In this document: positions 24,001 to 60,655 of the stretch, piece by piece | Numbering within the stretch: position 1 is the first letter of the stretch | Layout of the letters: the number at the start of each line of letters is the position of its first letter | DNA from: Candidatus Omnitrophota bacterium | GTDB lineage: Bacteria > Omnitrophota > Gorgyraeia > Gorgyraeales > Gorgyraeaceae | Assembly: GCA_030649895.1 (NCBI GenBank) | Contig: JAUSEX010000037.1 | Coordinates: forward strand, 3,815 to 67,814 | DNA: 64,000 bases | Direction of reading: 5' to 3' | The notes under the pieces: model-generated | Told to the model about the DNA's origin: nothing | Databases searched by the model: none | The model's input: the letters and a program-made list of their open reading frames with translations, nothing else | Position numbers and translations under genes: made by a program

Positions 24001-27000
24001 AGATACGAGTAGCTATAAAAAATCCAAAAGATGTTTATTATAAAGATGTGCCCGAAGAAGAAATCCCCTCATCTATTGACTATACGGAACTTACGATCGT
24101 TTCTAGAGATAGGCCGGGATTGGTCAGAGATATAGAGACCGTAATTGCTGAATACGGGGGCAATTTAACACGGCCGGCATTTGGGGCGATGAATGATGAA
24201 GGAATGGCGCGGTTGATTTATGAAATTAACCATGCTGAACGAAAAAATGCTTTTAATAGTAGAGAAATAGAAGAATTACGAAAAGCACTTTTAAAAATAA
24301 AGGTCGGCTTGGCGCCTCTTTCTATTAAACCAGAGTATGGATTCGAGGGTTGGAGAAAGGTCGAAGGGGATGCGGATGCTTATGAAGGAAAATTAGTTAT
24401 TGATGGCAATGTCATGGATCTGAAAGTTGTAAAATCTGCAAGTTCTTTCGAATATTTTCTGGGGTATGAAGGGGGGCCTGCGGGGTATGCTAGGATTTTA
24501 TTTAACAACAAAAAGCTTAAAGTCCATTATTTAGAACTTTCCCCTTCGTTTAGAAAGGCGATTGGCGATATTTCAGCAGCCAAAGTATTAATGAATATTA
24601 TGATCAGAGATTTATTCTTTATCGGAAGCCAGGATTTATCAGGGCTAATAGTCCAGGTAGTCATGAATGAAGATTCATCTACGCCTAAAGTAAATAATCT
24701 AATCGGAGGATTCGGGATAACCGAGTTTAACAGAGAAAAAGTAATGTCTATAATAATGGATGAAAAATCTAAAATTAGTATCGAAGAGACTAAGGCTCCT
24801 CATGAAGGCGTGCCGTATTTCAGGGTAGTATTGGAAGGAAAGCTGCCGCTAAAGATTTTTCTTAAAGCACGTTTAGAATATTCGTACAAAGACAAAAGGA
24901 CTTGGATTATTAGCAGGAAGATTTACGAACAAATGGAATCAGATGCAAGGTATAAACTAGGACAGGCTCCTCTGCAAGTCAAAGAACAGGCCCGGCTTAA
25001 AGGAGAATTAGCAAGAAGGCTCCAAGAAGACGAGGTTTTTGTCGGAGGAGTTGATTTTTATATGGATCCTGACAAAGTAGAGTGGCTTGAAGAGCATACT
25101 GCATCGTTGCCAGAGAATCCTTGGTTAGTAATTGATGACCTTGGTTCTGCTCATGCTCCAAGAGAGCAAAATGCGCCATCTCTTTTAGCCAATCTTTTCA
25201 CCGGAAAATGGAGTAAGTTTAATTGGGCGACAAGGGCTGTTTTTTCACTTGCTATAGTGCCGCATGAGGTTGGACATCTTTTTATGGCAAAAATAACCAA
25301 AACCCCTTTATTAAGAAAACTCTATATAGAAGATTTATCCAGTAAGATGCCTATAGCCGAAAGAGCCTCTCCAATAGTTCATTTAGCAGGATTGTTTGTA
25401 AATGCCTCTGTCGCTATTGCTTCAGCCTTTACTTTGCATTTCTTTGGCCACGCAGTTATAGATTTTACAAATCCTTTAGCTGGAATCCTCTCTTACGTCT
25501 TTCTTGCCAATAGCATTCTTTTTGCCTTAGAAATAATATTAGATGCTACCACTAAGCTTAGAGGAGATGTAACTAACGCAATTTTTGGACGCTCAGGATT
25601 TGCTAGTCAAATTAATGTACAGAGAGCTAAAAATATATTTTTCACATTCAAGGAATATATGAACGAGGCCTTGTATAACCCGGATTGGGGGTATTATGCA
25701 AGCGGCCGCGTAAAAATAGGGACTGTCAGAAAGGGGAGCGATTTTATTACTTACCCTTTGAAGCTATCTCCGCTATTTGGCGGAATGATTGCTGAACAGG
25801 CATTTAAGATGTGGGAGGGGATGGTCAGGGCAGGCACAATTACAGAAAATGAACAGTTTACTATTTTAGAGTTTGGCGGCGGAGACGGAACGCTGGCTTA
25901 TGATATTCTTTCACGCGCAAGCCAGAAGGCCCTGGATAATCCTGACTGGGCAAAGTTTTACAGAGCCCTACTTTATACTATAGGTGACCGCTCGCCTCCC
26001 TTGATTGAAATCCAAAAAAAGAAAAATGCGCGGTTTAATGGTAAATTTAATACGGTTTTAGTTGATGCGCTGAATCCTCTCGAGGGAGGCGTTTTCAAGC
26101 CCTCCTCTATAAAAGGCCTGATTCTTTCCAATGAATTGCTGGACGTTTCCGGCCACCAGAAACTTATCGTTTATCCGGACGGAGATATCAAGGTAACGCT
26201 ATCTATCCCAAAAATATCTTTAGCCTTGCTAGGCAATTTACCTAAAGACAAACAGAATGAGTTAGTTAAAAGAAATGAAGAGTTAATCTCGGAATTTAAG
26301 CTCCCTTTAACCGACGGGATATATCTTTCCAGGGATGATTTCTTGGCCCTGAAGGCTTATCTTAGGGATCTGGGCCCTGAGCAGGAGAATCTGTTTAATC
26401 AGGAAATAAGATTTATAGAAATTTATATTGACCCTATATATGTTCCGGAGGTCCTTAGCTATATTCAGGAGAATAAAGAAAGCATAGATGGATTTGTAGC
26501 TGATAATGAAAAGCCATTCGCTGTTTATATTAATCCTGATGGGGCGGGATACATCCAGGGCGCCGGAGAGATCCTGGATAAAGGCTACATCCTGACCATA
26601 GATTATGGCGGGTTATCGGATTATATTCTTGACCCTCAATATGAGCACCTTCTTATAATAAAAAATGGCTCAAGGGACGCTGATCCCTATAGCCTTCCTG
26701 GCCAACGAGATATCTCCGCTGAACAAAATTTTACTGATCTGGCAGCCGCTGGCCAAAAGATAGGGCTCAATACAGTATTTTACGGTAACCAGGCCCATCT
26801 TGAAGAAGGCGTGACTCCTTTAACGAGCCAATCTCTTTTGGAGGAGCTGGCAAAAAGGTTTCAGGGCCAGGAGCCTGGCTTATCTTCAGAGGAGGCTATG
26901 AAAAAAGCCAGGAGAGAAGTTGATGAATTCAGGCTTAGCGGAATCATTAATGATCCAGGTAGGAGCCCGTATAAGATGCTCATTCAACAGAAACCAGGGA

Positions 27001-30000
27001 CTGATAGCAAATATGTGTTTCCCGCTAGCTTGCTTCAATATACCGGGGAGAATAAAAGTAATGCTGGTCAGTCAATGCTCAAAATATTAGCTCCTTTTAT
27101 CGCAATAGTATTTATTGCCTGGTTCTTTATCAGCATTGTATTAGCGGCGCATACTGCGAATGCAGCTGGCTCTGGCAGCGCGGGGGCGCAGAACCGTGTT
27201 ATCCATCAACAGGAGGATGCGCGGATGATCCAGACTCCCGAGGTTGACATTCGTCCTGACGGTTTCTATGTTGAGAATAGAAGGATATTTATTGGGGCGG
27301 GAGTAAATTTCAGGATTTTGGATTATGACAACAATTTTGGGGCATATAGGCGGGTAACTGATTATCCTGAACAAGTAAAGGCTGAGCTGGCTGCTATACG
27401 CAGTATATCTCAGAGAGGGACTGTTGTTATCCGCGTGGGGTTATTGGATTCAGGGGTTAATTACTTTAAAGGCGAAGGTAATTATGCAAATATTCGGGAT
27501 GATGTGATTGCTTTCCTGCAATGGGCAAAGGATAACAATGTTATGGTAGAGTTTGTTCTAGCTGATTACCTGTTGGCTGCTCGTCATTCTGATGCCTTGA
27601 CCCATGATATTACCAGACAGGATATCACCCAAAGATTCTTAGGGGATTTGGTAAGGGATATCAAAGCTGATCCTAAGGCATTTTTAAGCCTCTGGGGATT
27701 TGATTTATACAATGAACCGGAATGGTCTGTCAGCCAAAGCTTTGGCGGTGGATGGGAGTATGTTACAGGAGAAAGGCCTGAACAGCCGATACCAATTGTG
27801 GATATGAACGCCTATTTTAATGAGGCTTACGAAACTATAAAGTCTATTGCTCCTGAAAAGTTCGTCACTATCGGCGTTTCAGCAAAGCATTTTAGCGTCA
27901 TAGGCGCAATAAAGGATAGGTTAGATTATTTTGCCCTGCATTACTATGCTTGGATGGGGCCTTTAGAAAGCTATGTCAGTCAGCTCCCGGAGAATAAACC
28001 TTGGCTATTAGAGGAATATCCCAGCAGAGACGAAGGTATGAATATCGAACCCGCTGTTTACTTGGATAATCTCTTAAATCTATGGAATACAGGTAAGCCT
28101 GCTTCAGGCGGATTAATCTGGATGTGGAGGCCAATCATAGGGCAGGCGGATGAAAATACCTCTGATGAAATGGTCGCTAAGCTTAGAGATTGGACTGCGC
28201 AACATCAAAATGAATTGGAAGGTAAATTTGGCCTGTTTCTTCCTCTAGTGTTCGGTTTTGCTTTAAAGCGTAAAGGAAACTTCTCGGAAACAGGAGAAGA
28301 TTCCTCGGAATTAGTTGATTGGAAAGCAGAATGCGATAGCCTTCCTATTCAGGCATATGATTCGGATTATTTTGTCGCTGCCAAGATATGGTCTTATAAA
28401 GGACTCAAGGTATTTTTTATTCCAGACCACAAATTCGAACACACCTTATTAAACCTGATGCGAAAGGCCTTAGGTTTTAAGTTTAGAGAGATACTTTCAG
28501 ATGCGCACGATGACGCAAGCTATCCGACTGAATATAAACCTTTGGATCCCGGAGAAGCCAGCGAGGGAGAAATTATTGATCGTTCCAATGCCTTAACTTC
28601 TGCGAATTGGCGTATGGCTCTTATAAAAGACGGGACCATCGCGGATTCTTATGACTTGTCGGTAATTAAGGCAGATGAGGGCGAAGGCCGGATACTTAAA
28701 CTGCGTTTAGCGCAATTTCCGGCAGTTACGCCTTCGAAAACAGATGAGACTATTTTAATTATTGAGAATGATTCTTTTGGTATATTTGACAGTAAAGAAC
28801 TTGAAAGAGCAATTAGTGAGTATGTCGACGCGCTTTTTAAACTTAATATTGAATTTGACGATGTTATTTTTGTAGACGCAGGAGATAAACTGTCTAACTG
28901 GATGATCGGCCCGCCAAGCACGCGTTATTATAGAGAACATATCTTGCGATTTTTATTGGCTAAACTTGCTGAGAAATACGAAGGCGGCGTAGATTATTCT
29001 ACGCAAAGAAGAAATGATCCCGCAAAAGAGATTAAAGGCGCAGAGGGAGATAGAATGGCAAATGGGGGTGTTCCCCGATCTGAGATGCAATCCGAGGCAT
29101 CAAAAGAAGAGCGGCAGCGTGATATCGATACGCAATTTATAGGCTTATTATACAGGGCTGCGTTTAATAGGCTGCCTGACATAAGGCATGATTTCGCTAG
29201 CGTGGTACGGGAAATGATAAGGGCAATGGCGGCTTACCGCGAATACTATCTTCTTTCTTCCACTCCCGTCAGAAGCCCGGATTCTATTACGCTGAAACTG
29301 CTCAAGGAAAGTATCGGCCAGGATGGAAAATTCCTTAATGTTAATTCTCATGCAGTTATGCAGCTGCGCATGGTAAGAGAGGTTTTTTCAGCAGATGCAA
29401 TGGTAGCAGCAATTGGTTATGATGACAAGAATGCCGAACTTCCGGTTATCGATCGCGTGTTATCATTAAAAACCGATGACTTGATTCGATATATTGAGAA
29501 GAATAAAAATAATATTGGTAAATCAAGGTTCAAAATATTACCTCTAGCGATACTATTTGGCGGATTTGCAGAAATGTTTTGGGGTTTTCCCTCTATTGCT
29601 CAGTCAGCGGGCTTAGAGGAGGCAGTAAATCAGAGAGCGTTCTTTCAGTCATTATTTTCCGAAACAACCTTGATAACCTTGGGGGCAATACTATTTACAT
29701 CTGTATCAATTGTAGGAGTAACTTTATCTTTATATAGGGTTTTTAAGCATAACTCCAAAAATGTAAGAGAACCTTCTCCTGCTCCTGACAAAGATCTAGC
29801 AAATGCTTCTGTTTGGGCTTTAGAAAGGATTTTGCATATTATAGATGAATTAAGCCGTGCAGGGGAAGAAGGAATCAGGCAGCTATTAGAGGAGATGAAA
29901 AAGAATTCTGAGAGCGTAGGCGTTGGAACAAGCCATGTAGAAGTTGCTGAAGAAGCTGATAGATCAAAAAATCAAGGACTAGGCGTTACGTTATACTCTG

Positions 30001-31868: not shown

Positions 31869-32007
31869 AGATTTTAGCAAACCTTTTGGGTGGAACTGGG
31901 CGGAATGCGCTATTCGGGCAATAGAAAACAGGCGTTCTGCTTATAAAGAATATATTTGTACGCCAAGACTATGTGGAGGAGATAATTGGTAAACAATTTT
32001 GAATTTA

Positions 32008-32040
32008 TGTATAGTAGGATGTCCCCGGATAGGACGTCCC
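32008..32040 (-). repeat. REP-like element copy (reverse orientation) with 5' GTAG, just upstream of the HExxH gene's probable start
   Basis: tgtataGTAGgatgtccccggataggacgtccc. Near-identical to 33891-33922. Confidence 0.6.
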
Positions 32041-32042
32041 AT

Positions 32043-33179
32043 ATGCATAGTCCTAGGCCTATTCTAAAGTTTATCTCTATTCTTATTGTTTTTATCTTTA
32101 ACTTTGAAAGTGTGGGACATTGCTTGCGGGTGCCGATGGTAATTAATGAAGATAGGTTTAGAAAAGCTGAAAGCGATGTTGCGGGGAAAACAATAAAAAT
32201 AAAATATCAAAGCATTAATGATGTTGTCTTGCAAGAGGTTAAAGAAGGCGAAGCAGGCTTTGAATTAGCAATGCAAGTTAGATATCATGCATATGATTCA
32301 ATGGGGAAAGTTGAAAATGATTTACGAGAACAGTTAATTAGAAATAACTGGTGGCTTAAAGCTATGTGGACACAAAAAGGATTGCCAAAGGAGCAGATTT
32401 CTATAACTATAAATGGACATATAATTGATGCTTACAATTGGAATAATGAAAGATTATCAGAAGAACAAATATCTCAGATAAGAGATGTCTTAAGTAAGTT
32501 TGCAATAATTGCAGGCGGGATTGCTTTGAAAAGAGTTCGCTATATTCTTATTGATAATCTAAGGGAGATAAATCCAAAATCTAGAGAAGAAATAAATGGT
32601 CGTGGAACGGGTCATGATCAGGTGATTTGGCTATATTTAAGAGCCATTCGTCCTATTTCTCACCGCGTGGAAGGAGCTACGAATCTTGAAGGAACATTGA
32701 TTCATGAACTGTCTCACAGTCTTACGTATATTATAGAGATTGATTGGGCAAAAAAATTTGGATGGAGACGCTTAGGAAGCCCTAATAAAATATTTCTAGA
32801 TGGCTCATATAGTATGTGGCAATTAGAAATTCCTGCACGCGCTGTAACTACGTATGCTGGAGAGTTTGATCCAGGGGAAGATATTTGTGAGAGCATGGTA
32901 GCTGCTCTGAAAAATCCAGAAATCTTAGACAGGGAACGCCTTGATTTTTTAAGAGGAAGTTTTTTGCAACCTTTAGATGAAAGAGATAACGAAATTCATA
33001 TTTCTGTAGAAAGATTTTATAAAAATAATATAGTATTACCTGCTGTTGCATCGCCGGTTAGATTTAAGAGGCATATATTAGAGCTTGAAGAAATTCCTGT
33101 TGAGTACCAGGTTGATGAGGAGTCCCTAGCTAGTTGGTTCCCATCTTTTCAGCCAAGAGTTATTGACAACGCTATTTAA
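32043..33179 (+). CDS. HExxH-motif putative zinc metallopeptidase with N-terminal signal/anchor
   Basis: ORF 31986(TTG)-33179. I prefer the ATG at 32043 (MHSPRPILKFISILIVFIFNF... signal-like) because the REP-like element at 32008-32040 lies just upstream, as for neighbouring genes. GGAGGAG at 31973-31979 would support the 31986 TTG instead. Single HELSH motif (GTLIHELSHSL). Confidence 0.55.
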   Translation: MHSPRPILKFISILIVFIFNFESVGHCLRVPMVINEDRFRKAESDVAGKTIKIKYQSINDVVLQEVKEGEAGFELAMQVRYHAYDSMGKVENDLREQLIRNNWWLKAMWTQKGLPKEQISITINGHIIDAYNWNNERLSEEQISQIRDVLSKFAIIAGGIALKRVRYILIDNLREINPKSREEINGRGTGHDQVIWLYLRAIRPISHRVEGATNLEGTLIHELSHSLTYIIEIDWAKKFGWRRLGSPNKIFLDGSYSMWQLEIPARAVTTYAGEFDPGEDICESMVAALKNPEILDRERLDFLRGSFLQPLDERDNEIHISVERFYKNNIVLPAVASPVRFKRHILELEEIPVEYQVDEESLASWFPSFQPRVIDNAI

Positions 33180-33190
33180 ATCTATGAGAC

Positions 33191-33220
33191 GGGGGACGTC
33201 CTATAAAGGGACACCCTATA
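33191..33220 (+). repeat. REP-like element copy (forward orientation) upstream of rayT
   Basis: gggggacgtcctataaagggacaccctata. Confidence 0.6.
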
Positions 33221-33305: not shown

Positions 33306-33896
33306 ATGCCAAGGGCAAAAAGGCTTGTAAGCGATGATACAGTGTTTCATATTGTACAAAGAGGCAATAATAAACAAACTATTTTTAAGGAAGATGAAGA
33401 TTTTGAAAGATTCCTATCCATAATAAGAAAATATCTATCTAAGTTTAAGGTAGAAATTTACCATTATTGCCTTATGAGAAACCATATACACATTCTATTG
33501 AAGATATTTAAAAAAGAAACATTAGCAAAGATTATGCAGGGGATTTTTCAGTCCTATAGGTTTTACTATAAGCGTAAATATGGCTATATAGGCTATCTAT
33601 ATCAAGGTAGATACAAAAGCGAATTAATCCAAGATGATAGCTATTTATCAGAGTGTGGCCGTTACATAGAAAGAAACCCTGTAAGGGCTGGTATAGTAAA
33701 AAAACCTTATGAATATAGATGGTCAAGTTGTAAGCATTATACATCTGGCCAAAAGGATGATATGGTTACAGAAAACCCACTTTATGAAAGCTTTGGTAAG
33801 ACTATAGAGGCTAGGCGCTATAGTTACGAAGAATATGTTTCTACGGCAAGGCCGTATGAGGAAATGATTGACAGGCAATTTGGGATTTATATATAG
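33306..33896 (+). CDS. rayT: IS200-like Y1 (HUH) transposase of the REP-associated (RAYT/COG1943) type
   Basis: Strong AGGAGGG RBS 8 nt upstream. Family signature is MPRAKR...FHIVQRGNNKQTIF.DEDFERFL...YHYCLMRNHIHILL (HUH = H-I-H) ... YLYQGRYKSELIQDDSYLSECGRYIERNPVRAGIV...YRWSS. Flanked by inverted REP-like elements at 33191-33220 and 33891-33922. Confidence 0.8.
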   Translation: MPRAKRLVSDDTVFHIVQRGNNKQTIFKEDEDFERFLSIIRKYLSKFKVEIYHYCLMRNHIHILLKIFKKETLAKIMQGIFQSYRFYYKRKYGYIGYLYQGRYKSELIQDDSYLSECGRYIERNPVRAGIVKKPYEYRWSSCKHYTSGQKDDMVTENPLYESFGKTIEARRYSYEEYVSTARPYEEMIDRQFGIYI

Positions 33897-33951
33897 CAGG
33901 GTGTCCCTGAATAGGACGTCCCGGATGTCGCGCGGATGTCGCGGATGTCGG
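33891..33951 (-). repeat. REP-like element copy (reverse orientation) immediately 3' of rayT, followed by 3 tandem ggatgtcgc units
   Basis: atatagcagggtgtccctgaataggacgtccc then ggatgtcgcgc-ggatgtcgc-ggatgtcgg. Forms an imperfect 8-bp hairpin GGGTGTCC...GGACGTCC. Confidence 0.6.
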
Positions 33952-33964: not shown

Positions 33965-35863
33965 ATGTTAAATTTAAAAAAAACTTTAAGCATAAAAATA
34001 ACATCATTAATTGTAGTTTTAACATTATTTGTTACGAGCTTAGCGTATTGTATAGAGCTGCCTGAAAGAAGTTATCTTAGGGTTCCTCTTTTAGGTAATT
34101 CAGATGAAGGAAGAGATAGATTAGCGAGAATAGGGACGTCTTATTCAGGGACAAATCCCGGCCAAAATATTTTTATTGGCGAAGAAAAGAAAACATTTTT
34201 AAATGTTTTAGGAGGGGCAGGAAAATCAGCTGTAATATTGCTTGCGGGTATTACTCTGCTGATTCTTCCAGCGTTAGCTGCTTGCGTACCAGAATCCAAG
34301 CCGGCGGTATCAGCGCCAACTGCTCAACTAACAGCTCAAGCAATTATTCAGCCGACTCAGACACCGAGGGCAACAGGGGCGCCATTGACTCCTACTCAGG
34401 CGGCGACTGTGAACAATCAAATAGCGATAGTAAATTGGATTAACGCTAATGTAGCTACGAATACAGGGTTACCTTTGAGTTTTAGAGTGCCTAAGAATTT
34501 TGATTGGAATAAAACGTTAGACGCGGATCATCGAATTATATTAAAGGAAGGATTGGTGCTTTATGACGCCGGGCTTGCCATGATAGTCTGGGCGAATACT
34601 AAGAATATTGCGCAAACAGATAGATTAATTAATGTTCTATGGAAAGATTCTTTAGGAGAGTTTAAAACTTTGCGGGCGTATTATGATCCTGCTGATATTC
34701 CAGGGCACCCATTTATCTACAGGGACCCTCGAGGTAATGATATCAGTCCTTTTGAACCAGGTAAGCGTGGGTATATATTCAAGATAATTAATGCAGAAGG
34801 CCATTATAGGATTACTGATCCGCTTACCGGCAAGCAGGTAACTTGGCAGCAATGGCAGCCTATTAGCGGTGAGAATAGCTGGTTTGCTAATATAGGAACG
34901 ATGCATACGTATTATAGCAAATACGGCTTAACATATAATCCTAATTCATTGGAGCTTAAATTAGCGGAAGAGGTTGCGCGGGCAGCGCTTTTATTGCAGG
35001 CTGATGATATTGGCGGCATACGCATGGCGCCTATTGGCACCTCGTCAGAAGGTGAAACCGGTAAAGACCCTCTTAAATTTAGGTTATTTTATGATGAAAT
35101 TTCCACAGAGAATAATCTTTCGGGTTATGCAGGATTGCGGATGCTTGCGCAAGTTACCGGAAAAGCAGAATATAAAAAGGCTATGTCAGGCATTGAAGCG
35201 TATTTTAAATGGGCATATGTGCCTGAGCTTGGTATTTTTGCTCAGGGCGCTCATTTTTATCCGGATAAAGGCTGGGTAAAAAATACCCTATTTGCTACGG
35301 ATGTCCAGACATGGGCAATTGATGCATTGGGACCTGATGTTATAGATGCTTGGTTTGGAGAAGGGACTGCTTACAGGATGTGGCAAAAAACAAAAGAATT
35401 AGCGGGCGTCCGCGATAGCAGCGGCAGGCTTATTGGCCTTGATTTTGCTGATTATCGCGCGATCGGGCGCCAACCTTTGAATAGCGGAGAATGGACAGGA
35501 GGGGGGATTACTGGCGTACTGGAGGCAGCAAAATTTTACGCCGTGTCTCATCCTGATTGGGCAGATGAGTTACAAAAAGATGCAGAAGCTATGCGCCTAG
35601 GCATGGAGAGCTTAAGGCTGTCAGAAGGAGACAAAACAGGGTATTCCTATTTTTCATGCGTGGTAACGCCTCGTGAATGTCCTGCAAATTACGGCTGGTA
35701 TTCTCCGCCGGAGGTGGGAAGTTTGGCGTCCACTGCATGGGCGTATTTTGTGGATACAGGATTTAATCCTTTTTTCTTTGGTGGAAAATCACCCGTGGAT
35801 CAAAAGAAGAAAACCAGCATGGCTGCGCCATTTCGCGTTACTGATATCCGAGGCGCTATTTAG
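33965..35863 (+). CDS. secreted/signal-anchored hypothetical protein (possible alpha-helical glycosidase-like fold, unassigned)
   Basis: ATG with N-terminal MLNLKKTLSIKITSLIVVLTLFVTSLAYC leader shared with the next gene. Pro/Thr/Ala-rich linker, then a W/Y-rich globular region. No family confidently recognised. Confidence 0.7.
   Translation: MLNLKKTLSIKITSLIVVLTLFVTSLAYCIELPERSYLRVPLLGNSDEGRDRLARIGTSYSGTNPGQNIFIGEEKKTFLNVLGGAGKSAVILLAGITLLILPALAACVPESKPAVSAPTAQLTAQAIIQPTQTPRATGAPLTPTQAATVNNQIAIVNWINANVATNTGLPLSFRVPKNFDWNKTLDADHRIILKEGLVLYDAGLAMIVWANTKNIAQTDRLINVLWKDSLGEFKTLRAYYDPADIPGHPFIYRDPRGNDISPFEPGKRGYIFKIINAEGHYRITDPLTGKQVTWQQWQPISGENSWFANIGTMHTYYSKYGLTYNPNSLELKLAEEVARAALLLQADDIGGIRMAPIGTSSEGETGKDPLKFRLFYDEISTENNLSGYAGLRMLAQVTGKAEYKKAMSGIEAYFKWAYVPELGIFAQGAHFYPDKGWVKNTLFATDVQTWAIDALGPDVIDAWFGEGTAYRMWQKTKELAGVRDSSGRLIGLDFADYRAIGRQPLNSGEWTGGGITGVLEAAKFYAVSHPDWADELQKDAEAMRLGMESLRLSEGDKTGYSYFSCVVTPRECPANYGWYSPPEVGSLASTAWAYFVDTGFNPFFFGGKSPVDQKKKTSMAAPFRVTDIRGAI
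33991..34128 (+). repeat. leader module A copy 1 (~138 nt; 5' coding region incl. signal peptide), ~90% identical to 35895-36032
   Basis: cataaaaataacatcattaattgtagttttaacattatttgttacRagcttagcgtattgtatagagctgcctgaaagaagttatct... shared. Confidence 0.8.
34130..34153 (+). repeat. REP-like element copy inside the 5' coding region of CDS 33965-35863
   Basis: atagggacgtcttattcagggaca equals the reverse complement of the 33899-33922 core with one mismatch. Confidence 0.5.
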
Positions 35864-35886
35864 AGTTAGAATAAGGGCGTTTTATT

Positions 35887-38800
35887 ATGTTAACTATAAA
35901 AATAACATCATTAATTGTAGTTTTAACATTATTTGTTACAAGCTTAGCGTATTGTATAGAGCTGCCTGAAAGAAGTTATCTCAGGACCCCTCTTTTAGGG
36001 AATTCAGATAAAGGGAGAGTCAGGTTAGCGGATGGATTGGGGCTAATGCCTTTGAACAGCAGGGTTATTGTGGGCATGCATGAAGGCGAATTGAATCTTT
36101 ATATCGAGGGCGTTGTCTCTGAGCAGGTAAAGCAGGATTTAAGAACTCTCTTGAATGCAAATCCGTATATTATAACGTATTCAATTAAAAGCATCTTTGA
36201 TGCCGACTCATTGGAATTCGAACCCTCTGAAATAACGGGTTTAAAATTAAAGAAGATCGGAGAAGGTATATATAAACGGGTTTTTTTGATAGAGGGAATC
36301 ATAACTCGCGACGGCCGTATTTTTCATAATTATCCTTTTGTCATGAAGATAACCAAGGGAGTGGATTTTGGCGATGTCCATTTGACAGAGGCGCATATAG
36401 GAGAAACTGCAAAGGCTGCGAATGAGTTAGCGCATAGCGATCCGCCGCTTCATCCAAGATTAGGAGGAGATTGGTTTTTTAATTTTGAGAATAGGAAATT
36501 TTGGGTCTTAACCGAAGGGTATGTCAGAGGCGTCAATTCAAAGATAAAAAGCGAAAGAATCGTAGAGGATGCTATATTGGGCAATGGTGATCCTGCTGCA
36601 AGAGATAAAATATTTTTAGAAACCGAAGAGAACGCTTTTTATGCGTATATTAAGGCGTGGAAGATATGGCGGGGACAGGAGCCGGTTGATACTGAAACGC
36701 TTTCTAGATTTATTGCTGACCCAAATCTGGAAAATATCGTAGATAAAATGCTGGTAGATCTGGATCTTTTATCCAGCAGCGCTAATGCCGGCTATCTCGT
36801 AAAAATTCTCTCGGAATGGTCAGACCTGGCTGACCGAGATAAAGGCCGTGTTATCTCGCGGGCTGCTCTCCGGGCCATTGGCAGAGAAGAAGGTATGAAG
36901 TTTTTAGCCGCAGCGAAGGATCAGATCGAAAATGGCATAAGCTATAAATATATCGCAAAGGCAATAGGTAATTTTTTGGAAGAGCAGTCTAAAGCGTTTT
37001 TGGCTTATTTTTATATTTTTAACGGCGAATTTAAAAAATTTATCAGGGTAAACCCAGTAATATTTAGAGGCATAGTAATGGATTTACAAAAAAATGAGCC
37101 GCTGAGAAAAGAACAGGAGGAAGGGATTGAAAAATTTTCCAAAGCTATGGATGAAATTTTTGAGCTAAGGGAGCTATATCTCATGGAAGAAGAGTATCCT
37201 AGCATTTGCGATTCTTATGCCGCAAGAGTAACGCAGATATTAAGGGATCATGGCATTGACGCGTCGCATGAAGTTTGTCGATGGCCAGAGCTGCAGATTC
37301 TCATGAGAGCCCCAAGCTATAATCCCGAGCATTATTTTGTTTTATCAAGAATCGCAGGATATGAATTTATCATTGATATTACAGCTGATCAGTTTGAAGT
37401 AAAAGATCTGTATGGAAATCCGCAGCAGTTAGGGTTGGTAGTGATACCCCTGGAAGTCGTCAGAAATAATCCGGATAAATTCTGGATGTACAATGGAAGA
37501 TTGTCTGCTTCTTTTGTTAATGTGCCGCTGGAGGAAAGATTGGATGCAGTTGAGATGCTATCCAGCGTGTTAAGGATATATGATGATGCAAAAAAAAGAA
37601 GCCTATCTTTAATCTTATGGCCTCAAACAGGAGAAAGCGTTTGGACGCGAGATCAGGCCAGGGTTAGAGTAGAAACGTTGCTGTTAGATATGAACGGTGA
37701 GGATGTAAACATAGCGAGGCGAGCGAGACATGAATTGGCGGCATCGAGGCAAAGAGCTGTTGAACCGTTATTAGATATTTTGAAAGAAACGGATGACTGG
37801 GAGCTAATGGAGAAGATTTATAAGGCTTTATTGATCGCCTGTGATCTTGTCAGCATCAGAAAGCTTCAGGATTTATATTTTAAACTGGAAGACGAATGGA
37901 AAAAAAATTGGATTCGTATCGCTTTAGAAAAGTTGATGCAATTAGATAGTTTTATTATGACCTATTCGCCAAAAGAAGGTAATGCGATCGAAAAAACTAC
38001 TTTTAAGAATAGGCTTGAAAAAGCGGAAGAATATATTTTAGGTTTAATCAGGGCTGACCCCGGAAGGATTAAGGTGATATTGGACTGCTGCGCTTCAGAT
38101 AGCAGCACTACCCTGGATATCGCAAAAAAAACCCATGGCGAAGATGAGGGCATAAAGATTATTGGAATGGATATCAATGAGATTCTTTATGTGGTCAGTG
38201 ACGCAGGAGGCAATGTGGCTGTATTTGATTCGCTGGATAACCTGGTTAGGTTAGATACGAAAGATGGATATTGGATAAGAAATTCCGAGGGTTGGGTTAA
38301 AGACGGCTATCATTTAGTTGAAGACGGGCCGGATAAAGAGGCTGTATCCTTATATGGAAGATTAAAGGAAACCTTACAGGCGCATCTGAGAAGAAAAATT
38401 GATATTTCAAAAAATGGCGTAGAACCTGATGCGTATAGCGATGGCCAGGGCAATAGAATAGAAGCTATATATCTTGTTAACCCTGAAGCTATAGAATGGG
38501 CAATGAGCCATAATTTAGAATTTATGCAGGGAGATTTTTTTAATTTAACAAATACCGTTGCGCAAAAAAGCGTAGATATAGCTATTGTCGGCAATGTTTT
38601 GGGGGAATATTATGAATATTATAGCCAAGATTCTACTTATGAGGCGCTAAAAGAAATAGGCCTTACGCTGAAAGAGGGCGGGAGGCTTATTATAGGAAAC
38701 AATCCTTCAAGAGTGATGACGGTAGATTTTCAGTTTCTTGTCTATGAACGCAAAGGCGATAATCTGGTATTAGTAGATATTGTTGGGCAGCCGCATATAT

Positions 38801-38895
38801 GGAAAGGTGAAGAAATAAAACAGATCGCTCTTAAATCGATTGAAAAAAGAGCGATTTCTATGCCTTTTTATTCTAATACCAGAGATCAGTTGTAG
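35887..38895 (+). CDS. secreted/signal-anchored multi-domain protein: transglutaminase-like Cys-protease-like core + C-terminal class I SAM-MTase-fold module
   Basis: N-terminal 30 aa almost identical to the previous gene. SICDSYAARVTQILRDHGIDA...HYFVL...IIDITADQ resembles the transglutaminase-like Cys-His-Asp core. The C-terminus has the MTase-fold motif order (ILDCCASDSS / IIGMDIN / VDIAIVGNVL / LKEGGRLIIG), with a degenerate motif I. Confidence 0.7.
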   Translation: MLTIKITSLIVVLTLFVTSLAYCIELPERSYLRTPLLGNSDKGRVRLADGLGLMPLNSRVIVGMHEGELNLYIEGVVSEQVKQDLRTLLNANPYIITYSIKSIFDADSLEFEPSEITGLKLKKIGEGIYKRVFLIEGIITRDGRIFHNYPFVMKITKGVDFGDVHLTEAHIGETAKAANELAHSDPPLHPRLGGDWFFNFENRKFWVLTEGYVRGVNSKIKSERIVEDAILGNGDPAARDKIFLETEENAFYAYIKAWKIWRGQEPVDTETLSRFIADPNLENIVDKMLVDLDLLSSSANAGYLVKILSEWSDLADRDKGRVISRAALRAIGREEGMKFLAAAKDQIENGISYKYIAKAIGNFLEEQSKAFLAYFYIFNGEFKKFIRVNPVIFRGIVMDLQKNEPLRKEQEEGIEKFSKAMDEIFELRELYLMEEEYPSICDSYAARVTQILRDHGIDASHEVCRWPELQILMRAPSYNPEHYFVLSRIAGYEFIIDITADQFEVKDLYGNPQQLGLVVIPLEVVRNNPDKFWMYNGRLSASFVNVPLEERLDAVEMLSSVLRIYDDAKKRSLSLILWPQTGESVWTRDQARVRVETLLLDMNGEDVNIARRARHELAASRQRAVEPLLDILKETDDWELMEKIYKALLIACDLVSIRKLQDLYFKLEDEWKKNWIRIALEKLMQLDSFIMTYSPKEGNAIEKTTFKNRLEKAEEYILGLIRADPGRIKVILDCCASDSSTTLDIAKKTHGEDEGIKIIGMDINEILYVVSDAGGNVAVFDSLDNLVRLDTKDGYWIRNSEGWVKDGYHLVEDGPDKEAVSLYGRLKETLQAHLRRKIDISKNGVEPDAYSDGQGNRIEAIYLVNPEAIEWAMSHNLEFMQGDFFNLTNTVAQKSVDIAIVGNVLGEYYEYYSQDSTYEALKEIGLTLKEGGRLIIGNNPSRVMTVDFQFLVYERKGDNLVLVDIVGQPHIWKGEEIKQIALKSIEKRAISMPFYSNTRDQL
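35895..36032 (+). repeat. leader module A copy 2
   Basis: see 33991-34128. Confidence 0.8.
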
Positions 38896-38896
38896 A

Positions 38897-38960
38897 GAGT
38901 TGTAGGGGGACGTTCTATTTGGAGTTGTAGGGGGACGTTCTATTTGGGGACACCCTATAC
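38897..38960 (+). repeat. two tandem 25-nt REP-like copies (AGTTGTAGGGGGACGTTCTATTTGG x2) + GGACACCCTATAC, overlapping stop codon of upstream gene; AGTTGTAG occurs 3 times
   Basis: Read directly at 38888-38960. Confidence 0.65.
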
Positions 38961-39125
38961 AAAGACAGGCTTTATGTTGAATATTAAAAAAATATTATTA
39001 ATCAGGGTAATAAGCTTATTACTTTCAATAAGCGTCGCGCTTCCAGACGCTGCCTATTCTCTATCTGAAAGCCTAAGAGTTCCATTAAATACCCCGGAAC
39101 TTAAAGAGCGGCAGGAAGAAGTTCA
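38923..39125 (+). repeat. leader module B copy 1 (REP-like motif + RBS + signal-peptide coding + LR[VA]PLNT.ELKERQEE), ~90% identical to 42680-42885
   Basis: ...tttatgttgaatattaaaaaaatattattaatcagggYaataagcttattRctttcaataagcgtcgcgcttccagRcgctgcctattctct... shared. Confidence 0.8.
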
Positions 39126-42100
39126 ACGATTTCTAACGCAGGACAAGGCAACTTCCACGCTTTTATCTCCTACGGTTTTAGTTACTGGTGGAGCAGGGTA
39201 TATTGGAAATTTTGTTGTCAGGCAGCTTCGCAGCAAAGGTTACAATGTGATTATTTATGACAGGGCTACTCGCCCGGAACTTGCATTGGAAAAGCTTAAA
39301 TATATACAAGGGGACTTGGGTGATCGCAAGCGTTTGGATGAAGTTTTTAAGGCGGAGCATGTTAATGCAGTTATCCATTTGGCTGCTTTAATTCAAGTGC
39401 CGGAATCAGTCAGGCGGCCAGCGGCTTACTATGAAAATAACTTTATTAATACGCTCGCTCTTCTAGATACTATGGCAAAGCATAGGGTAAGAAGTATTGT
39501 GTTTTCATCATCTGCCGCAGTGTATGGCGAGGGCTCTGAAGAGCTGCTGACAGAACAAACCAATGTTAATCCGGCTAATCCTTATGGTGAAACAAAATGG
39601 CTTATGGAAGAAGCTATGCGGGCCTATGAAAAACGTTATGGTATTCATTCAGTGGCGTTACGCTATTTTAATGCAGCCGGGGCAGCAATGGATGGCTCGG
39701 TTGGCGAAGCCCATCAGCCTGAAACGCATATTATTCCGAGTTTATTGGAGAAGGCGGTTAAAAAAAGAGAGAAGCTGCCTATCCGCAGAGGTTATCCTAC
39801 GCCGGACGGTACAGCGATCCGGGACTTTGTCCATGTGGAAGATTTAGCGCGAGCACATACCCTTGCATTAGACTACATAGTTCGCGAACAGCATAGCGAT
39901 ATTTTTAATCTTGGTACCGGGTCTGGGACATCAGTGCGGGAGATAGTAGAAAGCATTGAAAGGCTGACCGGGGAAGATGTCCCAATAGAGCTTTCTGCTC
40001 CGCGATCAGGAGGCGTAGCGCGGCTTGTAGCTAGTTTTACAAAGGCGCAGGCGCGTTTGGGCTGGATGCCTATATTAGGTATTGAGCAGATTCTTGAGTC
40101 TGCATTGAAATGGCATAGCAACAGGCCTATCATGACTCAGCAGCAAGGCGAAAATATTTTTATGGGCAGCCATGGCGAAGCTCAGGCATTTGAGCGCGTA
40201 ATATCACAGCTTAGGTCTAATTTTGTAATTGGTGATTCATTGCGCGAAGAAGTCATGGTTCGTCTTGCAAAAAGGATGCAGGTATTACTTAAAGAAGCGG
40301 ATCAGGCTGACGCAGAAGAGATATTGCGCGTTATATTTGCAAGTAACACGTGGCTGGTTAGCAGAGAAAAGCGCATTGTCAATGACCAGGAGTTAATGGC
40401 GCTGCTTGCAAAAAGCCTGGCTATTTCGCTGCGGCGCGAAGACGCAAAAGAAATTGCAGAATTCCTTAACGCGCTTCTGAACCATTATCCTGAAAATTTA
40501 CTGCCTGAAGCTAAGCGATTAATTCATTCATATTTAGTTGTCTATAATATCGATAGGCCATTGAAGATAGCTACTGTTGTTTCCCGCTATGGAGGCCAGA
40601 TCAGAATATTAAGGCCGGAAAATCATCCTCTTGGGGAGAATAATCTGCGGTTGAAACTAGAGCAGCTGGAAGAGCTTTACGGTATAAATACTAATGTTTA
40701 CTGGGAGTTGATTTTAGTTCAGGATGGGGACGATAGGAAGCCTGAAGATCCACTCAGGCGCCTGCGCACTATTGATATGGATAGGGATATTGTATTGGTT
40801 GAGCATCCTGATTACTTTGCTTCAGGAAGAGTGAGGCTTTATGAGCTGGATCAACAAGAGAAGCTGCGTTTAGGCAGCGTGCGTACCGGGGCTACTACTT
40901 ATGGCGCCCGCCAAGCCATAAGAAATGGCGCTGATTTTGTAGTTATTACAGATGGCGATGTATCAGCCCATATTGGACAGGAAGGACTTTTGCTTGAGCC
41001 TCAATTGAAAGGTGAAAAAATAGTTGCTGTTGGGTCACGCAGCGCTAGCGGTTCAATAGTGCGCGGCCGCAAACTTATCCGTCGTATTATAAGCCCGGGG
41101 TTTAATATTTTTTCCCGCTTGTTTTTGTCTTTGGGGCCTATCCGTGATACTCAATGTGGTTTTAAAGCTTACAGCCGTCAAGTGTTAGAAGATATTTTAC
41201 CTGTAAATAAGGATAATAGATTTGATATCGAATTTGCCTATAATTTTTCTGGCGAAGTAAATCTCCTTTGGAGGGCCAGGCTTTCCGGATATCAATTAAA
41301 AGAAATACCTATTGCCTGGTTTGATACTCCTACAACTACAGTAAAGCGCAGCGATATTATAAATATGGCCAAAGGCGTTTTAAGGCAAAGAGCTTATTTG
41401 GACAAATGGAAAAAAAGAACACCATCTGGCCAGGAGACAGAGACTATTTCTCTTCCAGGCAGCACAAAGGCGTGGGACCTTCAGTATAGAATAATGCCTA
41501 TAGAAGAAAAAATCAAAGTAGCCATGTCTAAATATGATTTAGGCGTTGCTTCTTTTGAAGATATCCGTTACGAAGAACTAAGGGGTGGAGTTCCTAACAG
41601 GCTTCCATTGAGACTGGAAACTCCTTTGGGAAATTTTGCCTTAAAACAGATTGCGCTTACATTGGAAGAGGCAAGATTTTGCGTTTCAGTGCTTCGCAGG
41701 CTTCAAAAAGAAAAGTTGCCTATCCCGGCATTAGTAAAGACTAAAGATTTTCCTGACGAGAAAACAGACAGCTATTTTATAAAAATAGGCACTTATTTTT
41801 ATATCTTGGAAGAATTTAAGGAGGGCCGATATGTTGATCGCTTACAGGCTGAGCCAGCCCATTTTTATAGCATAGGAAAGATAATGGCGGATATCCATCA
41901 TATTCTTGCTGGCTTTACACCGGAGGGGCAGAAAACAGCTGCTCCTGTAATAGATATCTTACGGCATAGGCGCGAGTTTCAGCAGCTAAGGGGAAGATTA
42001 AGAAACAGGGAAACTTTACAATTAAAAGCAGGAGAAATTTTATTTTTATATTTATATGAAGAAATTATGCAGCAGTTCGATATTTTAGAGAATAATCTTT

Positions 42101-42666
42101 CCGAATCAATTTACAATAGTTTGCCCAGAGTTGTTGTCCATGGAGACGCTTCTTTTCCAAATATATTATTTTCTGATACGGGAGAAGTTGTTGCTTTGCT
42201 TGACTGGGAACGGTCCAGGATTCAGCCGCGCGTAGAAGATTTTAAGAATACTATAATGACGGTTGATCCGATACAGGGCCGCACCTATGATTTTGACAGC
42301 TTGGTAGAACTGGTAGCTGCTTATCAGGCACATACTGCTGATAAGCTTACAGAGGCAGAATTGCGGGCTATACCCGAAGTTTTAAGGGCAACGTTTCTCT
42401 GGGAATTCGCTTCTCGTTTTATGTCTAGGATTTCAGAATTGGAACAAAAAGAAGGAATGGACAGGCTTGACAATATGCTTTTAAAGTTTCAGAGTTTTAA
42501 AAAAGATTTCCCTGGTACAAATGAGAGTATTCAAAGATTTATAAAGGAAGTAAACTCAAAAAGCCGAGAAATATTAATAGGCCCTGCTGAATCCCAGGAG
42601 CCTGTCTTTGAGATAAAGAGGGCGCTTGAAGAAGATGGATCGCCTGTTTTGCGTAATCAGATTTAA
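38974..42666 (+). CDS. signal-peptide-bearing tri-domain fusion: NAD-dependent sugar epimerase (GalE-like) + family-2 glycosyltransferase (DPM1-like) + APH/choline-kinase-like phosphotransferase
   Basis: ATG at 38974 (ORF-track TTG 38944 overlaps the repeat element). Signal peptide MLNIKKILLIRVISLLLSISVALPDAAYS. Epimerase: VLVTGGAGYIGNFVV (Rossmann GxxGxxG) ... YGETKW (YxxxK) ... matches GalE. GT2: LVQDGDD ... FVVITDGD ... DTQCGFKAYSRQ. Kinase: VVVHGDASFPNILF ... LLDWERS. Confidence 0.8.
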   Translation: MLNIKKILLIRVISLLLSISVALPDAAYSLSESLRVPLNTPELKERQEEVQRFLTQDKATSTLLSPTVLVTGGAGYIGNFVVRQLRSKGYNVIIYDRATRPELALEKLKYIQGDLGDRKRLDEVFKAEHVNAVIHLAALIQVPESVRRPAAYYENNFINTLALLDTMAKHRVRSIVFSSSAAVYGEGSEELLTEQTNVNPANPYGETKWLMEEAMRAYEKRYGIHSVALRYFNAAGAAMDGSVGEAHQPETHIIPSLLEKAVKKREKLPIRRGYPTPDGTAIRDFVHVEDLARAHTLALDYIVREQHSDIFNLGTGSGTSVREIVESIERLTGEDVPIELSAPRSGGVARLVASFTKAQARLGWMPILGIEQILESALKWHSNRPIMTQQQGENIFMGSHGEAQAFERVISQLRSNFVIGDSLREEVMVRLAKRMQVLLKEADQADAEEILRVIFASNTWLVSREKRIVNDQELMALLAKSLAISLRREDAKEIAEFLNALLNHYPENLLPEAKRLIHSYLVVYNIDRPLKIATVVSRYGGQIRILRPENHPLGENNLRLKLEQLEELYGINTNVYWELILVQDGDDRKPEDPLRRLRTIDMDRDIVLVEHPDYFASGRVRLYELDQQEKLRLGSVRTGATTYGARQAIRNGADFVVITDGDVSAHIGQEGLLLEPQLKGEKIVAVGSRSASGSIVRGRKLIRRIISPGFNIFSRLFLSLGPIRDTQCGFKAYSRQVLEDILPVNKDNRFDIEFAYNFSGEVNLLWRARLSGYQLKEIPIAWFDTPTTTVKRSDIINMAKGVLRQRAYLDKWKKRTPSGQETETISLPGSTKAWDLQYRIMPIEEKIKVAMSKYDLGVASFEDIRYEELRGGVPNRLPLRLETPLGNFALKQIALTLEEARFCVSVLRRLQKEKLPIPALVKTKDFPDEKTDSYFIKIGTYFYILEEFKEGRYVDRLQAEPAHFYSIGKIMADIHHILAGFTPEGQKTAAPVIDILRHRREFQQLRGRLRNRETLQLKAGEILFLYLYEEIMQQFDILENNLSESIYNSLPRVVVHGDASFPNILFSDTGEVVALLDWERSRIQPRVEDFKNTIMTVDPIQGRTYDFDSLVELVAAYQAHTADKLTEAELRAIPEVLRATFLWEFASRFMSRISELEQKEGMDRLDNMLLKFQSFKKDFPGTNESIQRFIKEVNSKSREILIGPAESQEPVFEIKRALEEDGSPVLRNQI

Positions 42667-42679
42667 AAAAAGCAAAGGA

Positions 42680-42711
42680 CTAGGGACGTTCTATTCGGGG
42701 ACACCCCATAC
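42680..42711 (+). repeat. REP-like element copy upstream of CDS 42725
   Basis: ctagggacgttctattcggggacaccccatac. Confidence 0.6.
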
Positions 42712-42885
42712 AAAGAGAGGTTTTATGTTGAATATTAAAAAAATATTATTAATCAGGGCAATAAGCTTATTGCTTTCAATAAGCGTCGCGCTTCCAGGCG
42801 CTGCCTATTCTCTGCCTGAAAACCGCTCTAATGCCTTAAGAGCTCCATTAAATACGCTGGAACTTAAGGAGCGGCAGGAAGAAGC
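42680..42885 (+). repeat. leader module B copy 2
   Basis: see 38923-39125. Confidence 0.8.
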
Positions 42886-53969: not shown

Positions 53970-54305
53970 ATGAAAATGAGTGATTTCGTAGAGAAGAGAA
54001 GATCCAGGAGATTGAATTTGTCTCTTCCTATGGTGCTCAGGCGGCTTACCGGGGAAGGCAAAGAAGAAGTCGTAGAAGCAGTAACCTCCAATGTAAGCTA
54101 TGATGGGGTATGTATAAGTGATGTGGATTTAAAAGATATAAAGCCGAATGATAATTTACAGATAACCCTTTCAGTGCCACGAGATGATTCAAGAGATTTC
54201 CCCTTTTCCCGTATTATTGGCAAGGCAAGGGTAGTTAGGGCCGGGATGGAAACTTACGCACTTGAGTTTAGCGAAGATGTATCTCGGCTTTGTATCGCTA
54301 ATTAA
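53970..54305 (+). CDS. PilZ-domain c-di-GMP-binding protein
   Basis: EKRRSRRLNL (RxxxR) ... NVSYDGVCI (D/NxSxxG): the two PilZ c-di-GMP binding motifs at canonical spacing. Good RBS. Confidence 0.6.
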   Translation: MKMSDFVEKRRSRRLNLSLPMVLRRLTGEGKEEVVEAVTSNVSYDGVCISDVDLKDIKPNDNLQITLSVPRDDSRDFPFSRIIGKARVVRAGMETYALEFSEDVSRLCIAN

Positions 54306-54385
54306 AGAACTGTTTCTTGTTTCGTTCCTTTCAGTGGCAAGATTCGGAATTAAATTTGCAAAGCAAATTCAAAAGGATGAAATGC

Positions 54386-56592: not shown

Positions 56593-56604
56593 TATGGGAA
56601 AATT

Positions 56605-60605: not shown

Positions 60606-60655
60606 TGGCGTAAATACTTAGCAGAAAAACAAGGTATTCTTAGAGCGAAGCCGAA

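Follow-up and report, generated by a model that had tools for sequence, protein, structure and literature searches.

Near-identical leaders of neighbouring genes in Candidatus Omnitrophota: copies of an apparently undescribed, phylum-typical N-terminal module with a putative role in export

The locus and its genes

The window analysed here, the whole stretch of 64 kb from contig JAUSEX010000037.1 (GenBank assembly GCA_030649895.1), belongs to a metagenome-assembled genome (MAG) of Candidatus Omnitrophota and contains, between a giant open reading frame (ORF) and a group of PilZ, ABC transporter and hydrolase genes, a cluster of genes whose products begin with a common module of about 55 residues, referred to here as the leader. 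Its main interest lies in what appears to be an undescribed combination: a phylum-wide leader with a matching C-terminal ending, carried by many mostly enzyme-like proteins that are tied to the giant-gene system. The genes of the cluster are all encoded on the plus strand (32043-33179, 33965-35863, 35887-38895, 38974-42666 and 42725-46426) and are named below by their first position; a transposase gene lies among them at 33306-33896. Scores are those of a hidden Markov model (HMM) of the leader.

32043..33179, plus strand: gene with a diverged leader; body with an HExxH motif, C-terminus ...VIDNAI
32043-32171, plus strand: leader C, of gene 32043 (...VGHC LRVPM...); leader HMM 27.4 bits, E 8e-8
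33965..34129, plus strand: leader A, first 55 codons of gene 33965-35863 (632 aa); leader HMM 81.8 bits
35887..36033, plus strand: leader A', first 49 codons of gene 35887-38895 (1002 aa); leader HMM 63.3 bits
38974..39121, plus strand: leader B, first 49 codons of gene 38974-42666 (1230 aa); leader HMM 46.8 bits
42725..42884, plus strand: leader B', first 53 codons of gene 42725-46426 (1233 aa); leader HMM 49.5 bits

A preliminary description of this DNA had listed four leader genes, all of which are upheld here; its count was one short, since the gene at 32043-33179 carries a diverged leader. This fifth gene has an orthologue that is 76% identical (P0111), and its product gave no match in a Pfam search. 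Gene 33965, on a contig of 111 kb, is annotated at NCBI as the hypothetical protein Q7O04_04575 (its neighbour is Q7O04_04580), and its body belongs to an Omnitrophota family of secreted proteins, with 55 body homologues and the C-terminus ...DIRGAI. The product of gene 35887, ending in ...TRDQL, shows a weak methyltransferase match near its C-terminal end that stays below the cut-off. The body of gene 38974 (C-terminus ...LRNQI) combines a GalE epimerase (364 bits) with an APH/CotS-type kinase (APH, 2.8e-19) and a weak match to a family 2 glycosyltransferase (GT2; E 0.005), and gene 42725 ends in ...KIDSAL. The body annotations proposed earlier therefore held in part: GalE and the kinase were confirmed, GT2 and the methyltransferase were found at the weak levels just given, and the labels "UDPGP-like" and "transglutaminase-like" found no support in Pfam, NCBIfam or PDB sequence searches, the PDB searches with three of the bodies being uninformative.

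Near-identical leader pairs and copying of leader DNA

Two pairs of leaders stand out at the DNA level. In pair A, positions 33986-34126 and 35890-36030 align without gaps over 141 nt with 90.8% identity (self-blastn E 3.9e-50), close to the ~138 nt and ~90% first proposed. Both genes start with ATGTTAA, followed by an 18-nt indel, indicating that the homology runs from the start codon. In the corresponding proteins, 43 of 47 leader residues are identical and the remainder is without similarity. Pair B consists of two blocks separated by a 12-nt indel, the first between 38932-39073 and 42683-42824 (142 nt, 93%) and the second between 39074-39121 and 42837-42884 (48 nt, 92%). Overall, about 190 nt (about 200 had been claimed) are shared at 92-94% identity, over 202 blastn columns (E 1.7e-67). 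This tract begins 42 nt 5' of the ATG, exactly at a repetitive extragenic palindromic (REP) motif that is treated below; 43 of 53 leader residues are identical between the two proteins and the bodies are unrelated. Thus, as had been noted, the leaders are far more conserved than the bodies, the paired proteins resembling each other in their leaders only. When the 64-kb window was compared with itself, pairs A and B were the only ones to exceed 80% identity over more than 100 nt, so that the similarity represents specific near-identity and not low-complexity sequence. Between the two types, the A and B peptides are clearly homologous, while their DNA is only 62-65% identical.

The distribution of differences within the pairs tells how they arose. 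The 13 differences in the 141 nt of pair A correspond to 5 synonymous and 4 replacement codons, and the 12 differences in 150 nt of pair B to 5 synonymous and 7 replacement ones, with 4 further differences in the shared 42 non-coding nucleotides. Replacement sites are thus no better conserved than silent and non-coding ones, which reflects recent copying of DNA: the near-identity of the pairs is due to recent common ancestry of the DNA and not to selection on the peptide. Leader-body junctions coincide with the break-points of identity, since the tracts stop 1-2 codons past the last column of the independently defined family profile, indicating that whole leader modules moved in frame. This copying between genes with unrelated bodies bears out the idea of leader swapping or gene conversion in the preliminary description.

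Gene conversion or illegitimate recombination would thus have copied leader DNA twice onto a neighbouring gene, at a recent time corresponding to 7-10% divergence; the pair B copy would have taken along the 5' untranslated region and the adjacent REP repeat. The direction of copying can be proposed from leaders of other genomes. The protein P0145 matches gene 35887 across the leader-body junction (...RLKDGLALMPL), and P0076, P0098 and P0116 continue past the junction as gene 38974 does (...ERQQ.VQR...FLTQEE), suggesting that the leaders of these two genes are native and that those of 33965 and 42725 are copies. Hence 35887 and 38974 are likely the original owners and 33965 and 42725 the recipients. 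Other tandem leader genes, in L005 and L033, carry leaders that are not near-identical, so that the near-identity of the window pairs represents two recent local events on top of an old phylum-wide family.

A leader family of the Omnitrophota

A profile built from the five window leaders was searched against 1.84 billion representative proteins (threshold E<=1e-3) and matched 101 protein clusters, nearly all at residues 1-55, in proteins of 69-3503 aa. The consensus of about 55 residues is MLKFKKVLNLKIISLLVAIVFLLNSTAYGIDLSNKSHLRVPLLGNSEEGRERL, and the motif LR.P[LMIVF] is present in 80 of the 99 matches from outside the window. A source name was available for eight of 20 looked-up clusters, and in every case it was Candidatus Omnitrophota. 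The bodies behind the leader are very diverse: 82 that were tested fell into 52 unrelated groups, with domains such as radical SAM/B12-binding, PfkB kinase, PPDK_N, methyltransferase, aldo-keto reductase, HEAT and TPR. Additional leader genes were found in the Omnitrophota loci L005 (three), L009, L023, L032, L033 (two) and L035, and the improved profile recovered exactly five leaders when applied to the window.

No Pfam or NCBIfam model describes this module. Three leader sequences had no Pfam match at E<=10, and the full-length proteins had none in their leader region with either Pfam or NCBIfam. Against NCBIfam at E<=1, leader A had no match and leader B hit only a TatA model (NF001854) at a sub-threshold score (E 0.00088; 19.9 bits, with a cut-off of 72). 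The Pfam and NCBIfam models of known conserved signal peptides (YSIRK, ESPR, KxYKxGKxW, TAT_signal and others) did not match the leader. Searches of a word index of 5.8 billion proteins gave no match with the leader B peptide and a single one with an alignment of 83 leaders; they carry little weight, as the word filter is ill-suited to a short diverged module. A back-translated pattern, AYGI[DE]L..K..LR.P, was found at four metagenome loci only. The word "leader" is absent from the two papers on Omnitrophota giant genes and "motif" from the 2026 preprint, and a further text search brought up no account of such a leader. The leader is thus a phylum-typical and apparently undescribed N-terminal module, without a Pfam or NCBIfam model and apparently restricted, among its named members, to Omnitrophota.

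The C-terminal ending and a second signal-like segment

Leader proteins also resemble each other at the opposite end, where they tend to finish in a hydrophobic residue followed by R, then T, S or D, then S, D or Q, and finally L, I or V (hydrophobic-R-x-x-[L/I/V]-COOH). The final residue is L, I or V in 70 of 101 leader proteins, versus 23 of 105 ORFs that served as controls and came from comparable genomes (p 7e-12), and in all 20 leader genes whose stop codon was verified, the five of the window among them (VIDNAI, DIRGAI, TRDQL, LRNQI, IDSAL). The body family of gene 33965 allows a comparison within one family: a tail ending in the signature is present in P0001, P0003 and P0004, which are full-length and have a leader or leader-like N-terminus, and in the N-terminally truncated P0006, and is absent from the roughly 50 members without a leader. 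The ending is probably a second part of the same signal.

Behind the leader of gene 33965 lies a further element:

34175..34285, plus strand: second signal-peptide-like segment with lipobox (IGEEKKTFLNVLGGAGKSAVILLAGITLLILPALAAC); hydrophobic residues 85-110 and LAAC at 104-107 of gene 33965

Leaderless homologues of the 33965 body, about 50 in number, begin with a plain signal peptide at the position of this segment. Comparable second segments occur in P0003, P0004, P0078, P0094, P0101, P0119, P0120, P0131, P0138, P0147, P0152 and P0154; they often consist of a twin-arginine RRxFL motif plus a hydrophobic stretch, or of a lipobox, with true lipoboxes in 33965 (LAAC) and P0131, and the segment is conserved between the homologues P0147 and P0154. 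Together with the shared C-terminal ending, these segments suggest that the leader is more than a generic signal.

In gene 33965 the copied tract is directly followed by a degenerate REP (34131-34153) and then by the lipobox segment. This relic and the second signal had led to the proposal that the leader was grafted there onto a protein that previously had none, which was softened to the overwriting of a leader, because P0003 and P0004, the closest relatives of the body, share the leader-like N-terminus, the second signal and the C-terminal tail. Since these relatives are already leader-like, the overwriting of an older leader is as likely as a first-time graft.

REP repeats and the associated transposase

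The motif found at the border of the copied tracts, GGGACGTYCTAT-N3-GGGACAYCC, belongs to the REP-type extragenic repeats and is linked with a REP-associated tyrosine transposase (RAYT).

33306..33896, plus strand: RAYT (IS200-like Y1); Pfam Y1_Tnp 5.9e-15, above cut-off
33192..33220, plus strand: REP copy 5' of the RAYT gene; nhmmer E 6e-10
33894..33922, minus strand: REP copy 3' of the RAYT gene, inverted relative to 33192-33220; nhmmer E 1e-9
32012..32042, minus strand: REP copy immediately upstream of the ATG of gene 32043; nhmmer E 9e-9
31930..32011, plus strand: second RAYT 3'-end remnant (31930-32040 and 33813-33922, the latter being the RAYT 3' end and REP, share 76-79% identity)
34131..34153, plus strand: degenerate REP inside the coding sequence of gene 33965, abutting the end of pair A identity; nhmmer E 1.1e-4
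38897..38959, plus strand: REP region upstream of gene 38974, with a half-site (38906-38922) and a full REP (38931-38959)
42680..42710, plus strand: REP copy ahead of gene 42725, marking where the pair B repeat starts on the left; nhmmer E 2.7e-9

The best NCBIfam model for 33306-33896 is that of REP-associated tyrosine transposases (1.5e-17), at 63.8 bits and below its 80-bit cut-off. The window contains five full copies of the REP, one partial copy and one half-site, all within 32-43 kb. Inverted copies flank the RAYT gene, and the motif is also found behind RAYT 3' ends at 31930-32042 and in L019. The degenerate copy in gene 33965 matches the minus-strand copy ending at 33922 at 20 of 21 bases, and the REP region before gene 38974 includes a perfect tandem duplication (38897-38946) of a 25-nt unit, GAGTTGTAGGGGGACGTTCTATTTG, repeated at 38897-38921 and 38922-38946 and holding the first REP half-site. 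Before gene 32043, the REP ends 1 nt from the ATG, and its AGGA may act as a ribosome-binding site.

Outside the window, the exact pattern occurs at 22 intergenic loci in about ten other Omnitrophota MAGs, with up to eight per MAG, often as inverted doublets that fold as long hairpins (z -7 to -9). The 24-nt core is nearly invariant across these MAGs (L003-L024), which come from different environments and some of which are mislabelled Planctomycetia. REPs are usually species-specific, and this conservation is wider than usual for such elements.

The preliminary description had regarded this motif as a common upstream element of a cassette system, a notion that is not supported. The upstream element is a REP repeat instead of a promoter or recombination site of a cassette; ordinary intergenic DNA of the other MAGs contains it too, and pair A shares no upstream DNA, so that the REP is not part of the leader module. 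An inverted REP motif, which the preliminary description did not list, is also present upstream of 33965 and 32043. The genes of the cluster are co-directional and the motif sits in the spacers between them, which is why it comes to stand before leader genes here. Neither an integrase, nor an attC-like site, nor a promoterless cassette array was found. The RAYT is the only mobile-element protein that Pfam and NCBIfam detect in 31.9-46.4 kb, and each leader gene is complete, start codon included. There was no match to Rfam families around the leaders, and promoter-like sites were no more numerous than in shuffled sequence (36 versus 39.6 +/- 6.4); terminator-like hairpins, counted overall and not site by site, were somewhat above the shuffles (21 versus 12.5 +/- 3.2). 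A dedicated cassette machinery is thus not supported.

Both copied tracts have one border that falls on the left end of a REP. As REPs are the substrate of the RAYT, these two coincidences hint that the break-points may be due to REP/RAYT activity or to recombination seeded by REPs. An ATT codon at 34175, 19 nt past the REP relic in gene 33965, repeats the REP-to-ATG spacing of pair B and was considered as a former start codon, an observation that is treated as anecdotal.

Relationship with the giant gene

Omnitrophota, which are uncultured and apparently live as predators or in dependence on hosts, possess some of the largest genes reported (bioRxiv 10.1101/2023.11.21.568195), and one giant gene lies next to the leader cluster.

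3..31868, plus strand: giant ORF, >10,611 aa; truncated 5' at the window edge, no in-frame stop ahead of position 33

Over its first 10,000 residues, which were scanned, Pfam finds only a GH2-type TIM barrel and Methyltransf_28, and its C-terminus, ...TLTSI, fits the signature of leader proteins. Residues 7193-8376 of the giant protein have a 53%-identical paralogue in the body of gene 42725 (21747-25091 versus 43118-46315; 65-69% at the DNA level), and residues 6260-6435 show 57% identity to P0062, a protein of another genome, indicating that stand-alone leader genes and modules of giant genes share ancestry. The domains of the leader bodies are, moreover, those of the repertoire reported for Omnitrophota giant proteins (bioRxiv 10.1101/2023.11.21.568195).

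Growth of the giant ORF by fusion of leader genes was considered and rejected: it predicts internal leader relics, and the leader profile found none in the ORF at E<10. The giant ORF also contains a 65-nt internal repeat (27029-27093 versus 29480-29544, 78% identity). Downstream of the leader cluster, at 53970-61935, are a PilZ gene, a solute-binding protein, two ABC permeases and GH2/GH72-like hydrolases. Another Omnitrophota locus (L025:12725-15362) has the order giant gene, leader gene, PilZ, solute-binding protein and permease, as in the window. This neighbourhood of PilZ, solute-binding protein, permease and hydrolase genes corresponds to the published surroundings of Omnitrophota giant genes (bioRxiv 10.1101/2023.11.21.568195).

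Leader architecture and a putative role in export

The leader begins with a lysine-rich n-region (M-x-K-F-K-K-x-x-N-x-K), the consensus MLKFKKVLNLK placing four lysines ahead of the core; window leaders have 2-4 Lys/Arg there, except that of 35887, which retains one after the 18-nt deletion. A hydrophobic core of 12-13 residues, IISLLVAIVFLL, is followed by the polar NSTAYG, a six-residue stretch with small residues at -3 and -1 (consensus A-Y-G; A-Y-C, A-Y-S and G-H-C in the window). Next comes a conserved stretch on the mature side, I-D-L-x-x-K-x-H-L-R-x-P-L-x-G-N-S-x-E-G-x-x-R-L, with about 25 hydrophilic residues centred on L-R-x-P-L. Given the four lysines before the core and a net charge of about +1 after it, the C-terminal side is predicted to be translocated. 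A charged n-region, a core of 10-15 residues and small residues at -3/-1, the features of Sec signal peptides, can all be read in the leader. The S/T-R-R-x-F-L-K motif that precedes the core in Tat signals is absent, as the n-region has KFKK and no RR, and so is a lipobox ([LVI][ASTVI][GAS]C) at the core end, where the consensus is AYG-I and leader A has L-A-Y-C, with Tyr at -1.

This build is that of a predicted cleavable Sec-type signal peptide joined to a putative sorting or processing motif, and, with moderate confidence, the leader can be regarded as an export and sorting signal. It would send diverse enzymes and very long proteins out of the cytoplasm to a lineage-specific destination; the domain types of this cargo recur in the giant proteins. 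The claim of a common export leader has gained ground, the module being present on at least 52 unrelated body types with the predicted architecture of an export signal. Taken as a whole, the repeats of the window are probably copies of an Omnitrophota leader of ~55 residues with an export role, which was copied twice between neighbours.

Several points weigh against this explanation. Export and cleavage are predicted from sequence architecture, and most of the cargo consists of enzymes that depend on cofactors of the cytoplasm (NAD+, ATP, S-adenosylmethionine, Fe-S, B12) and fit poorly with Sec export into the periplasm. A second signal-like segment right behind the leader, found in about a quarter of the members, makes a simple cleaved signal peptide an insufficient explanation, and no conserved partner gene was found beside leader genes in four other loci. 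As for the copying, two events were seen, with two break-point coincidences pointing to the REP, and, as repeats were compared within the 64-kb window, the donor may be a third leader copy elsewhere in the genome. The same kind of event also appears elsewhere, though with an ambiguity: two contigs (L028:1298-2017 and L031:1-720) are 98% identical over 720 bp, comprising a glmS 3' end, the spacer and the leader to about codon 58, and have unrelated bodies; this could be a body swap at one locus or the assembler taking different exits from a repeated leader. A glmS 3'-end remnant is also present downstream of the leader gene in L029.

Alternative explanations

It is conceivable, though unlikely, that concerted evolution explains the pairs by itself, all five leaders being old and recurrent gene conversion, seeded by homology of REP and leader, keeping the pairs alike with no grafting onto new bodies. 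All five genes do carry family-type leaders, REP homology lies on the left flank of pair B, and the leader-like N-terminus, second signal and tail of P0003 and P0004 make it probable that 33965 was leader-bearing before the event. However, the copies have diverged by 7-10% and differ by 12- and 18-nt indels, so that homogenisation is not ongoing, and neither the A and B types (62-65% nt) nor the tandem leaders of L005 and L033 have been homogenised. In addition, the body of 42725 is a paralogue of a leaderless internal module of the giant gene, which indicates acquisition of a leader. This possibility overlaps with the preferred explanation, differing from it in the mechanism and not in the nature of the repeats.

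Equally improbable is that the leader serves other ends than secretion, either as a membrane anchor or docking peptide holding cytoplasmic-type enzymes at the membrane or at a giant membrane protein, or as a pro-peptide cut at LRxPL by a dedicated protease, for which the C39/S8 peptidase domains reported on giant proteins would be a candidate type. Cargo domains are indeed typical of cytoplasmic enzymes and match the repertoire of giant proteins (bioRxiv 10.1101/2023.11.21.568195), second hydrophobic or Tat-like segments often follow the leader, and L-R-x-P-L and the C-terminal hydrophobic-R-x-x-L resemble related short recognition motifs. On the other hand, the core has only 12-13 residues and leads into a polar stretch whose -3/-1 residues are small, the pattern of a cleaved signal and not of a 20-residue anchor, the charge balance around the core predicts the C-terminal side outside, and the body family of 33965 is otherwise secreted with plain signal peptides.

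Mis-assembly (a collapsed or chimeric repeat) or AT-rich low complexity, to which the breaks of short-read assemblies at both repeats and the often short leader-gene contigs of other samples might point, is effectively refuted by copies that differ at 12-13 positions and by in-frame indels, each in frame with a long body, by blastn E values of 4e-50 and 2e-67 with no other such repeats in 64 kb, by a leader family in about 100 independent proteins from many sources, and by an independent assembly (Logan, SRR13727527) that is 100% identical to the window. Contigs of that assembly end within both repeats, as expected of genuine repeats (L002 stops at 34021 and L001 begins at 42729); L001 independently confirms the leader-body junction of 42725, and the junction of upstream DNA and leader in 33965 is also reproduced at 100% identity.

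Significance

The putative export by way of the leader bears on the question of where the giant multi-enzyme proteins of Omnitrophota act: inside the cell, at its surface or in a prey cell. Leader and C-terminal ending together constitute a searchable label for proteins that are probably handled together, which can be counted in 176 complete genomes. The near-identical pairs show how a gene can change its leader, a module of 150-200 bp being copied next door, and in this simple way new enzymes, among them pieces akin to parts of giant genes, would be drawn into the leader set.

More speculatively, the leader and the C-terminal ending could be the joint label of proteins that travel out of the cell by an undescribed sorting or secretion route of Omnitrophota, among them cytoplasmic-type enzymes (epimerase/kinase fusions, radical SAM, methyltransferases) and proteins of several thousand residues, with genes joining or leaving the set through leader copies and modules being exchanged with giant genes; we hold this wider proposal only tentatively. 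If it were true, the cargo might be bound for the cell surface, for a giant-protein complex or for prey, the route would be a bacterial analogue of RxLR/PEXEL export, and the bodies of 42725 and P0062 would be examples of modules exchanged with giant genes.

Comparison with known systems

The repeat upstream of the leaders resembles REP/REPIN sequences and their RAYTs, as the motif flanks a Y1-transposase gene in inverted orientation, recurs in intergenic DNA and forms inverted doublets elsewhere in Omnitrophota. It differs from typical REPs in that a single unit is made of two direct half-sites with no obvious palindrome. Furthermore, the RAYT falls below the NCBIfam trusted cut-off, the unit is conserved across many Omnitrophota species and one copy lies in a coding sequence.

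Polymorphic toxins (CdiA VENN, Rhs, MIX/FIX) and pilE/pilS conversion share with the leader genes an N-terminal trafficking module combined with interchangeable C-terminal parts, and recombination break-points at the module border. Leader genes, however, are without toxin/immunity pairs and without silent or orphan cassettes, their bodies are whole multi-domain enzymes with their own histories, and two copy events only were observed.

In oomycete RxLR-dEER and Plasmodium PEXEL (RxLxE/Q/D) proteins, a signal peptide is followed within about 10-30 residues by an Arg/Leu motif plus a charged stretch, and this conserved leader is present on highly diverse effectors, with modular evolution at the leader-body junction. 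The Omnitrophota leader shares this layout, and a host-dependent or predatory life is also assumed for Omnitrophota. Those are eukaryotic secretory pathways with unrelated motifs, nothing found here points to delivery into another cell, and the resemblance is a lead and not a test.

Bacterial parallels are the YSIRK-G/S (PF04650) and KxYKxGKxW signals and the ESPR extension (PF13018) of autotransporters, in which, as in the leader, the signal-peptide sequence itself is conserved within one lineage and is found on many unrelated, often very large proteins. In accessory-Sec substrates (KxYKxGKxW plus AST region) a conserved N-terminal stretch of the mature protein is also part of the signal. The leader has no sequence relationship with these signals in Pfam or NCBIfam and is, among its named members, restricted to Omnitrophota. 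Unlike YSIRK-type signals, it stays conserved for about 25 residues beyond the predicted cleavage site (LRxPL..GNS.EG..RL), goes together with a C-terminal ending and is carried mostly by enzymes of cytoplasmic type.

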